A stretch of DNA of 64,000 bases, taken from contig JAUZTB010000017.1 of assembly GCA_034780895.1 (NCBI GenBank), forward strand, positions 12,875,342 to 12,939,341, written 5' to 3'. Each line of letters opens with the position of its first letter. The first letter of the stretch is position 1. Below, one piece after another: positions 48,212-48,390 of the stretch. Origin of the DNA: Rhynchobatus australiae. Its lineage: Eukaryota. Position numbers and translations under genes: made by a program. The notes under the pieces are model-generated. The model did no database searches and was not told the DNA's origin. It saw nothing but the letters and a program-made list of their open reading frames with translations.

Positions 48212-48390
48212 TTAGAAACGATGTGGCCACATAGTCCAGGGACAATCCATCTATGCGGTCACTTTATCACACGGCTGGAAAGTTGTGCAAACGACTTGTT
48301 AGTTCATGAGCTAATTAGTGCTGATATCACATAAACAGCTTCCACTGAAGCCCTGTAATGGCTTGATGATTGGTCGCTATTACTCGCCTT
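48212..48390 (-). promoter_or_regulatory. Conserved emx2 5' leader / proximal regulatory block with CCAAT, CTAATTAG and three uORFs
   Basis: Minus strand reads GGCGAGTAATAGCGACCAATCATCAAGCC...GAAGCTGTTTATGTGAT...CACTAATTAGCTCATGAACTAACAAGTCGTTTGCACAACT, which closely resembles my recollection of the human EMX2 5' UTR. CCAAT at 48369-48373; CTAATTAG at 48311-48318. Confidence 0.7.

Follow-up and report, generated by a model that had tools for sequence, protein, structure and literature searches.

A probable Emx2/Emx3 promoter block and an ancient weak upstream AUG in the emx2 leader of Rhynchobatus australiae

The systems closest to the locus treated here are conserved uORFs (upstream open reading frames) and conserved leaders. 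In Hox genes, conserved uORFs that begin in poor context repress reporters (Ivanov et al., 2022, PMC8892498). Start-stop elements, in which an AUG is directly followed by a stop codon, are known from ATF4, MORF4L1 and HOXA11 (PMC13338717), and the ESUCA animal set comprises conserved-peptide uORFs, or CPuORFs (PMC7530721). A set of 589 leaders has been called hyperconserved on the criterion that high-scoring PhastCons elements overlap the mouse RefSeq leader by 250 nt or more, and mouse Emx2 is a tested member of it, as far as the accessible part of the preprint goes (Byeon et al., bioRxiv 10.1101/2020.06.29.165878). Whether translation or promoter constraint maintains such leaders is disputed. 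In the accessible part of their paper, Akirtava et al. (2022, PMC9456764) reported promoter overlap for 93% of the hyperconserved leaders, which explains most of them in their account, and attributed the bicistronic activity of most of these leaders to promoter activity; the accessible part of PMC12048685 defends overlapping DNA and RNA roles. The emx2 locus provides a natural test: its paralog emx3 keeps the motifs and has lost two of the three AUGs, so that within about 130 bases the two kinds of constraint can be told apart.

The emx2 gene and the upstream ATGs of its leader

We analysed a window of 64,000 nucleotides from Rhynchobatus australiae (contig JAUZTB010000017.1), called the shark sequence in what follows, in which emx2 lies on the minus strand. 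The coding part of exon 1 (47681-48068, minus strand) begins with the main ATG at 48068, which has an A at position -3, and is identified by its open reading frame, by RNA reads and by a protein match of 94% identity to a named shark EMX2. The homeodomain is encoded by exons 2 and 3, with its first part in exon 2 (46290-46474, minus strand; translation and spliced reads), and the coding part of exon 3 runs through the stop codon (43902-44069, minus strand; translation). Splicing of the junction between exons 1 and 2 was seen in 56 + 5 RNA reads, and a PDB search returned generic homeodomains and nothing else. At 46464, near the start of exon 2, the consensus of the RNA reads and the window disagree; the base is the third of a Thr codon and the change is synonymous. 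The RNA donors are therefore unlike the assembled individual at this position. The window was otherwise without a long unmasked open reading frame of evident function; short frames adjoining masked stretches at 11045-11193 (minus strand) and 53456-53911 (plus strand) may resemble LINE ORF2 proteins in their C-terminal tail.

A first-pass annotation had placed three tiny uORFs upstream of the main ATG, and reading of the sequence and its open reading frames confirmed all of them on the minus strand. The first (ATG1, 48327-48332) is a start-stop element, ATG-TGA, in which the AUG is directly followed by a stop, as it is in mouse; the second (ATG2, 48299-48307) reads ATG-AAC-TAA and encodes MN; and the third (uORF3, starting at ATG3, 48212-48250) has 12 codons, MDCPWTMWPHRF followed by a stop, and opens with MDC. 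ATG3 has a weak start context with a pyrimidine at -3 and a G at +4, and 143 nt separate the stop of uORF3 from the main ATG. The annotation had passed over an inner ATG at 48232, in frame within uORF3, and a further uORF of 32 codons (48091-48189, minus strand), which has a weak context and spans a CT repeat. Its stop lies 22 nt upstream of the main ATG and emx3 is without a counterpart; for translation in this species it could outweigh the conserved uORFs.

Five ATGs lie in the emx2 leader of 277 nt, where 3000 dinucleotide shuffles had 4.3 on average (P 0.43), and the presence of two uORFs of at most two codons has a P of 0.048-0.078, likewise over 3000 dinucleotide shuffles. An unusual number of upstream ATGs was therefore rejected as being at chance level. 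It is their conservation that goes beyond chance. As the number is ordinary, the case rests on conservation and on the presence of the ATGs in the mRNA.

Conservation in mouse, in the emx3 paralog and in teleost-like sequences

The annotation had attributed the three motifs to the human leader, and conservation to a mammal was borne out, in that all three elements are found in the same order in the mouse Emx2 leader (NM_010132), at +22, +48 and +96 of 526 nt. The mouse sequence was taken from a supplementary table of PMC9456764 in which 400 of the 526 letters are printed, and it was compared by eye. A stretch that we call block A (48281-48343, minus strand), and that aligns to DNA upstream of emx3, contains GCTGTTTA, the palindromic CTAATTAG and TCGTTTGCAC and equals mouse at 58 of 63 positions, with one inserted base in addition (by eye). 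It is followed by an unalignable spacer of 30 nt in shark and 21 nt in mouse. Identity then begins sharply at the A of ATG3, the 5' flank of which is not kept in mouse, and from there 17 of 18 letters agree (48250-48233, by eye). Mouse uORF3 has 6 codons and that of shark 12. Altogether the shark block matches, by eye, the first 116 nt of the mouse Emx2 leader listed in the table of hyperconserved 5' UTRs. The letters of uORF1 and uORF2 (15 of 15 identical to mouse) were not distinguishably better kept by eye than their flanks (43 of 48). Since the flanks match mouse about as well, the codons do not stand out in this comparison. Searches of metagenome contigs, by protein and by motif, and of prokaryotic genome contigs yielded no orthologous DNA, and the cross-species comparison is for this reason confined to one mouse table row, two shark paralogs and the protein translations of teleost-like contigs.

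The genome contains two emx2 paralogs, L004, which we take to be emx1-like, and L005, which has a named shark EMX3 as its best match (92%). DNA upstream of emx3 (L005:2001-2129, on contig C87 of G000) aligned to 48200-48345 with a score of 50, against 21.9 +/- 3.2 for shuffles, 0 of 1000 of which reached it; with 719 other segments of the window the best score of the emx3 upstream DNA was 40. The shared-motif pattern, which was built from these two loci, occurred only at the emx2 and emx3 places in 2.2 Gb, and the control gave 0. Retained in emx3 in the same order are the CCAAT box (48369-48373 in emx2, minus strand), GCTGTTTA, TAATTAG and ATGGATTGT, and the distance from CCAAT to the next motif is 32 nt in emx3 and 34 nt in emx2. 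Within block A we take TGTTTA to be a forkhead- or TATA-like motif and the palindromic TAATTAG to be a homeodomain-like site. ATG1, the T of which is lost, and ATG2, which reads ATC, are absent from emx3, and the flanks of both are kept. ATG3 is present, its context about as weak as in emx2, and opens the six-codon uORF MDCFID at a distance of 147 nt from the main start.

Since emx3 keeps the motifs without ATG1 and ATG2, the ancient constraint on block A does not concern the ATGs in it, and since it keeps ATG3, this ATG is older than the first-pass annotation had supposed. Judged from the alignments, block A is likely a core or proximal promoter and start region, and ATG1 and ATG2 probably just happen to be spelled by conserved DNA motifs, although they could have acquired a role after the split of emx2 and emx3. 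The emx3 copy is new, and it tells the promoter motifs apart from a single ancient upstream AUG.

At the emx1-like locus, no match to the block was found in 1.5 kb of upstream DNA (score 22, at shuffle level) or in 9.9 kb, an absence that is not firm since 3855 of these bases are N. In the same locus (L004:900-1500), upstream ATGs occur at -140 and -87, a CCAAT box is located at -277, and an ATG at -6 is in frame. A second DNA match in the genome, L002, was rejected as a paralogous block because it consisted of the CT repeat only. Emx3 is called a paralog of Emx1 in the accessible part of PMC10937912; if this is so, the block goes back to the first duplication of Emx, and emx1 has either lost it or has it masked.

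It had further been proposed that uORF3 is possibly constrained as the peptide MDCPWT, and this was not borne out, since only MDC is shared and stop, length and frame vary. After MDC, shark emx2 continues with PWTMWPHRF, mouse with PWT and emx3 with FID, each followed by a stop, and the teleost-like sequences with LEKS and further residues. The latter come from a teleost-like EMX2 cluster of 25 members, one of them a named Lampris EMX2; they are translations of contigs and may hold errors or copies of one species. Among the 15 members listed, four (P0006, P0057, P0061 and P0065) had an MDC start 198 nt upstream that reads through, with no intervening stop, into the main open reading frame, with which it is in frame for 66 codons. 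If this start is used, it would yield an N-terminally extended Emx2. P0065 begins 16 codons earlier with MNQQI, which is the position of ATG2 at mouse spacing with its stop read as Gln. In shark, mouse and P0065 alike, ATG2 is in the frame of ATG3, for which the chance is 1 in 3.

At the nucleotide level, ATGGATTGT is common to shark emx2, mouse and emx3, and the D and C codons of MDC show no synonymous change in either DNA comparison, for which the expectation under peptide constraint alone is about 0.05; in the coding region of emx2 and emx3, two-fold sites are kept at 12 of 25. The lack of synonymous change points to a nucleotide motif. The region of ATG3 contains ATTGT, presumably a SOX-like core. 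Hence uORF3 lacks the signature of a conserved-peptide uORF: MDC alone is shared, its D and C codons carry no synonymous change, and frame and stop vary. Four lineages retain the ATG itself, and the three represented by DNA have it in a comparably weak context. From these comparisons, the constraint at uORF3 appears to be on the ATG plus a few nucleotides and not on the peptide.

Transcription start and coverage of the upstream ATGs

Two stranded raw RNA runs, X21 and X22, which carry the same species label, were mapped on 47300-48345 (about 18% and about 24% of each were read), and no differing letters were listed over this interval. Two contig runs, X1 and X6, contributed no usable data. In X21 (308 reads), sense depth was about 90 in the coding exon and 49 and 39.5 in the leader, the latter in the bin that begins at 48175, and it then fell to 28 (48210-48244), 10.4 (48245-48279), 2.0 (48280-48314) and 1.0 (48315-48345). 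A model with a single start fitted best at 48300 with inserts of 200-400 nt (four sizes), with a deviance of 5-22 compared with 43-89 for 48350, and the best start stayed at 48300 when all reads reaching further upstream were assumed lost; the fits omit two bins at the CT repeat and are rough because the bins are correlated. We infer a main start zone for X21 at 48270-48330 (minus strand), with a width that allows for library effects and a position that is based on the RNA-seq depth ramp and the model fits rather than on mapped caps.

In a usual core promoter, CCAAT lies about 60 to 100 nt and an A/T-rich box about 30 nt upstream of the start. A start near 48300 would set the CCAAT box at about -70 and TTTATG at about -30 to -35, a spacing usual for a core promoter; emx3 has the same box. 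In X21, ATG1 is likely to be mostly outside the main transcript and ATG2 at its edge.

In X22 (36 reads), depth over ATG1 and ATG2 was 3-4, about half of that in the leader (about 6), two reads extended past 48345, and the fits called for a start no lower than about 48370. Depth at ATG1 was 1 of about 45 in X21 and 3.2 of about 6 in X22, and coverage of ATG1 and ATG2 (1/44 versus 3/6) differed between the runs with a p of 0.004, a rough value from counts read off depths. Dips of RNA depth in conserved stretches can be artefacts, and the reads of X22 do pass there. We take these data as a hint of alternative starts, with ATG1 and ATG2 both inside a longer isoform. In both informative runs, ATG3 lies within the transcribed leader.

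The mouse row, as far as the table in PMC9456764 describes it, lists an ENCODE promoter overlap of 0.45, an enhancer overlap of 1 and an EPD sum of 1; 8.5% of the CAGE reads are at the annotated 5' end and 75 reads fall in three internal peaks, the strongest peak not being at the 5' end. The ratio of RNA-seq between the 5' and 3' halves of the leader is 1.17, and the leader was active in bicistronic assays. The row favours internal starts without placing them, since it gives no peak positions. The mouse RefSeq leader has all three ATGs, and with the half ratio of 1.17 this means that ATG1 and ATG2 may be in many transcripts.

About 15 antisense-oriented reads of X21 covered exon 1 (47720-48279), and none were seen in the intron, in the last exon bin or in X22. 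They represent either strand leakage or a transcript like emx2os.

Probable promoter, weak upstream AUG and their described relatives

The explanation that we favour, and to which we attach moderate confidence, is an ancient core promoter of Emx2 and Emx3 in which ATG1 and ATG2 are incidental, combined with a transcribed weak upstream AUG, ATG3, that serves as a leaky brake independent of its peptide. Transcription factors would bind CCAAT, TGTTTA and TAATTAG of block A as promoter DNA, and most transcripts would start near 48300, as the RNA-seq suggests. Scanning ribosomes would come upon ATG3 at a distance of about 50 nt from the cap; part of them would initiate there and be diverted, and the remainder would leak past it or re-initiate at the main ATG. 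ATG3 would thereby lower the translation of Emx2 whatever peptide follows, and by analogy with the Hox uORFs such a dampening is likely. Unlike a classic inhibitory uORF, the frame opened by ATG3 in the four teleost-like proteins has no stop and is continuous with the main open reading frame. With an upstream start, the leader would be longer and would include the start-stop and the MN uORF as well. A more elaborate possibility, which we consider doubtful, is a promoter-coupled dial that predates the duplication of emx2 and emx3, with ATG3 as basal brake and a tissue-specific choice of start that adds the start-stop and the two-codon uORF. If it were true, a weak upstream AUG would have been kept for about 500 million years and the choice of start site would tune the dose of a graded patterning factor.

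The nearest competitor places everything at the DNA level: ATG3 too would belong to a transcription-factor site or to a downstream promoter, and selection would act on no uORF. An unchanged GATTGT and the nucleotide identity of ATGGATTGT in shark emx2, mouse and emx3, set against only 12 of 25 two-fold coding sites kept, fit this well, as do a stop and a frame that are free even to the point of being in frame with the main open reading frame in teleost-like sequences, and the promoter overlap that is said to explain most hyperconserved leaders (PMC9456764, accessible part). It sits less easily with the sharp beginning of mouse identity at the A of ATG3, the 5' flank not being kept, with the retention of the ATG in four lineages, in the three of which with DNA its context is comparably weak, and with the transcription of ATG3, because of which scanning ribosomes would meet it. 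For the locus as a whole we regard it as unlikely. For the first two elements, the DNA-level alternative that the first-pass annotation had itself offered is the likelier reading. The annotation's main proposal, that start-stop, MN uORF and uORF3 all lie in the main mRNA and were selected as translational repressors, stands as regards a transcribed ATG3. As a three-part cassette it is unlikely, and somewhat more so than the purely DNA-level account. The elements do keep their order from shark to mouse, mouse RefSeq and run X22 include all three, ATG2 and ATG3 share their frame in shark, mouse and P0065 at a chance of 1 in 3, and start-stops repress reporters even near the cap, according to the accessible part of PMC13338717. 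Nonetheless, X21 has a depth of 1-2 over ATG1 and ATG2 against about 45 in the leader and a start near 48300, the emx3 block lost both ATGs and kept their flanks, the flanks are conserved as well as the codons, the stop of uORF2 is Gln in P0065, and the start-stop of HOXA11 was similarly reported as possibly untranscribed (PMC13338717, same part).

Constraint on the RNA or on an antisense partner, through an overlap like that of Emx2os, an RNA structure or a protein-binding site, is improbable. In mouse, Emx2OS and the Emx2 mRNA overlap over about 253 nt, and Emx2OS alters the level of that mRNA (PMC2799550, accessible part); and the antisense-oriented reads of X21 over exon 1 would agree with this, but their depth is zero above 48280 and they are absent in X22. 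The bicistronic activity of the mouse leader would speak for the RNA, yet for most such leaders it is ascribed to promoter activity in the accessible part of PMC9456764, and the shark leader, at -50.1 compared with -52.0 +/- 4.6 kcal/mol for 100 mononucleotide shuffles, folds with no extra stability. Least credible of all, and very improbable in our view, is that uORF3 encodes a sequence-constrained regulatory peptide MDCPWT. The six residues are identical in shark and mouse and the sole change, of the CCC/CCT type, is synonymous, but a single change would be synonymous with a chance of about 0.18 (8 of 45 single changes), for which reason it was rejected as a sign of peptide selection. The different stops of shark and mouse, MDCFID and stop in emx3 and MDCLEK without a stop in the teleost-like sequences also argue against such a peptide.

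The first-pass annotation knew of no description of these elements. In part this has to be corrected, as the block belongs to the published set of hyperconserved 5' UTRs, with its promoter overlap flagged; for the uORFs themselves it held. We found no description of Emx2 uORFs or of an element shared by emx2 and emx3, which supplementary tables elsewhere may list. One set of human Ribo-seq ORF tables lists an ORF of EMX2OS and no EMX2 uORF, and three supplementary files of PMC11057154 have no EMX2 row. In the accessible texts, PMC8892498 has no match to 'emx' in its main text and names EMX2 only in the list of screened genes, the preprint of Byeon et al. has no match to 'emx2' or 'paralog', Emx2 is one table row in PMC9456764, and EMX2 is absent from the main text of PMC13338717, the supplement of which may list it.

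Compared with the described systems, uORF3 resembles the CPuORFs of the ESUCA animal set (PMC7530721) in being a short uORF with residues identical from shark to mouse and differs from them in that its peptide beyond MDC is lost in emx3 and in teleost-like sequences. The start-stop of emx2 shares with those of ATF4, MORF4L1 and HOXA11 an ATG-TGA conserved among vertebrates in a transcription-factor gene, and it is probably not part of the main transcript, a suggestion later made for HOXA11 too (PMC13338717, accessible part). With the hyperconserved leaders the block has in common that mouse Emx2 is listed and tested among them, the promoter overlap and the mainly internal CAGE peaks (Byeon et al. 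and PMC9456764, accessible parts). ATG3 probably acts as the Hox uORFs do. These likewise belong to homeobox patterning genes and have an upstream AUG present from fish to mammals in conserved suboptimal context, and their true leader is shorter than annotated, as is probable for Emx2 (PMC8892498, accessible part). ATG3 was found in shark, in mouse and in teleost-like proteins, and its suboptimal context, with a pyrimidine at -3 and G at +4, in shark emx2, mouse and emx3. For the Hox uORFs there are CAGE maps and Ribo-seq signals, and they repress reporters, whereas emx2 ATG3 is known from sequence and RNA-seq reads; unlike them, it is common to paralogs and in some fish can be in frame with the main open reading frame. 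If ATG3 is a working brake, weak upstream AUG control of the Hox type would extend to a non-Hox homeobox family and would predate the Emx duplication.
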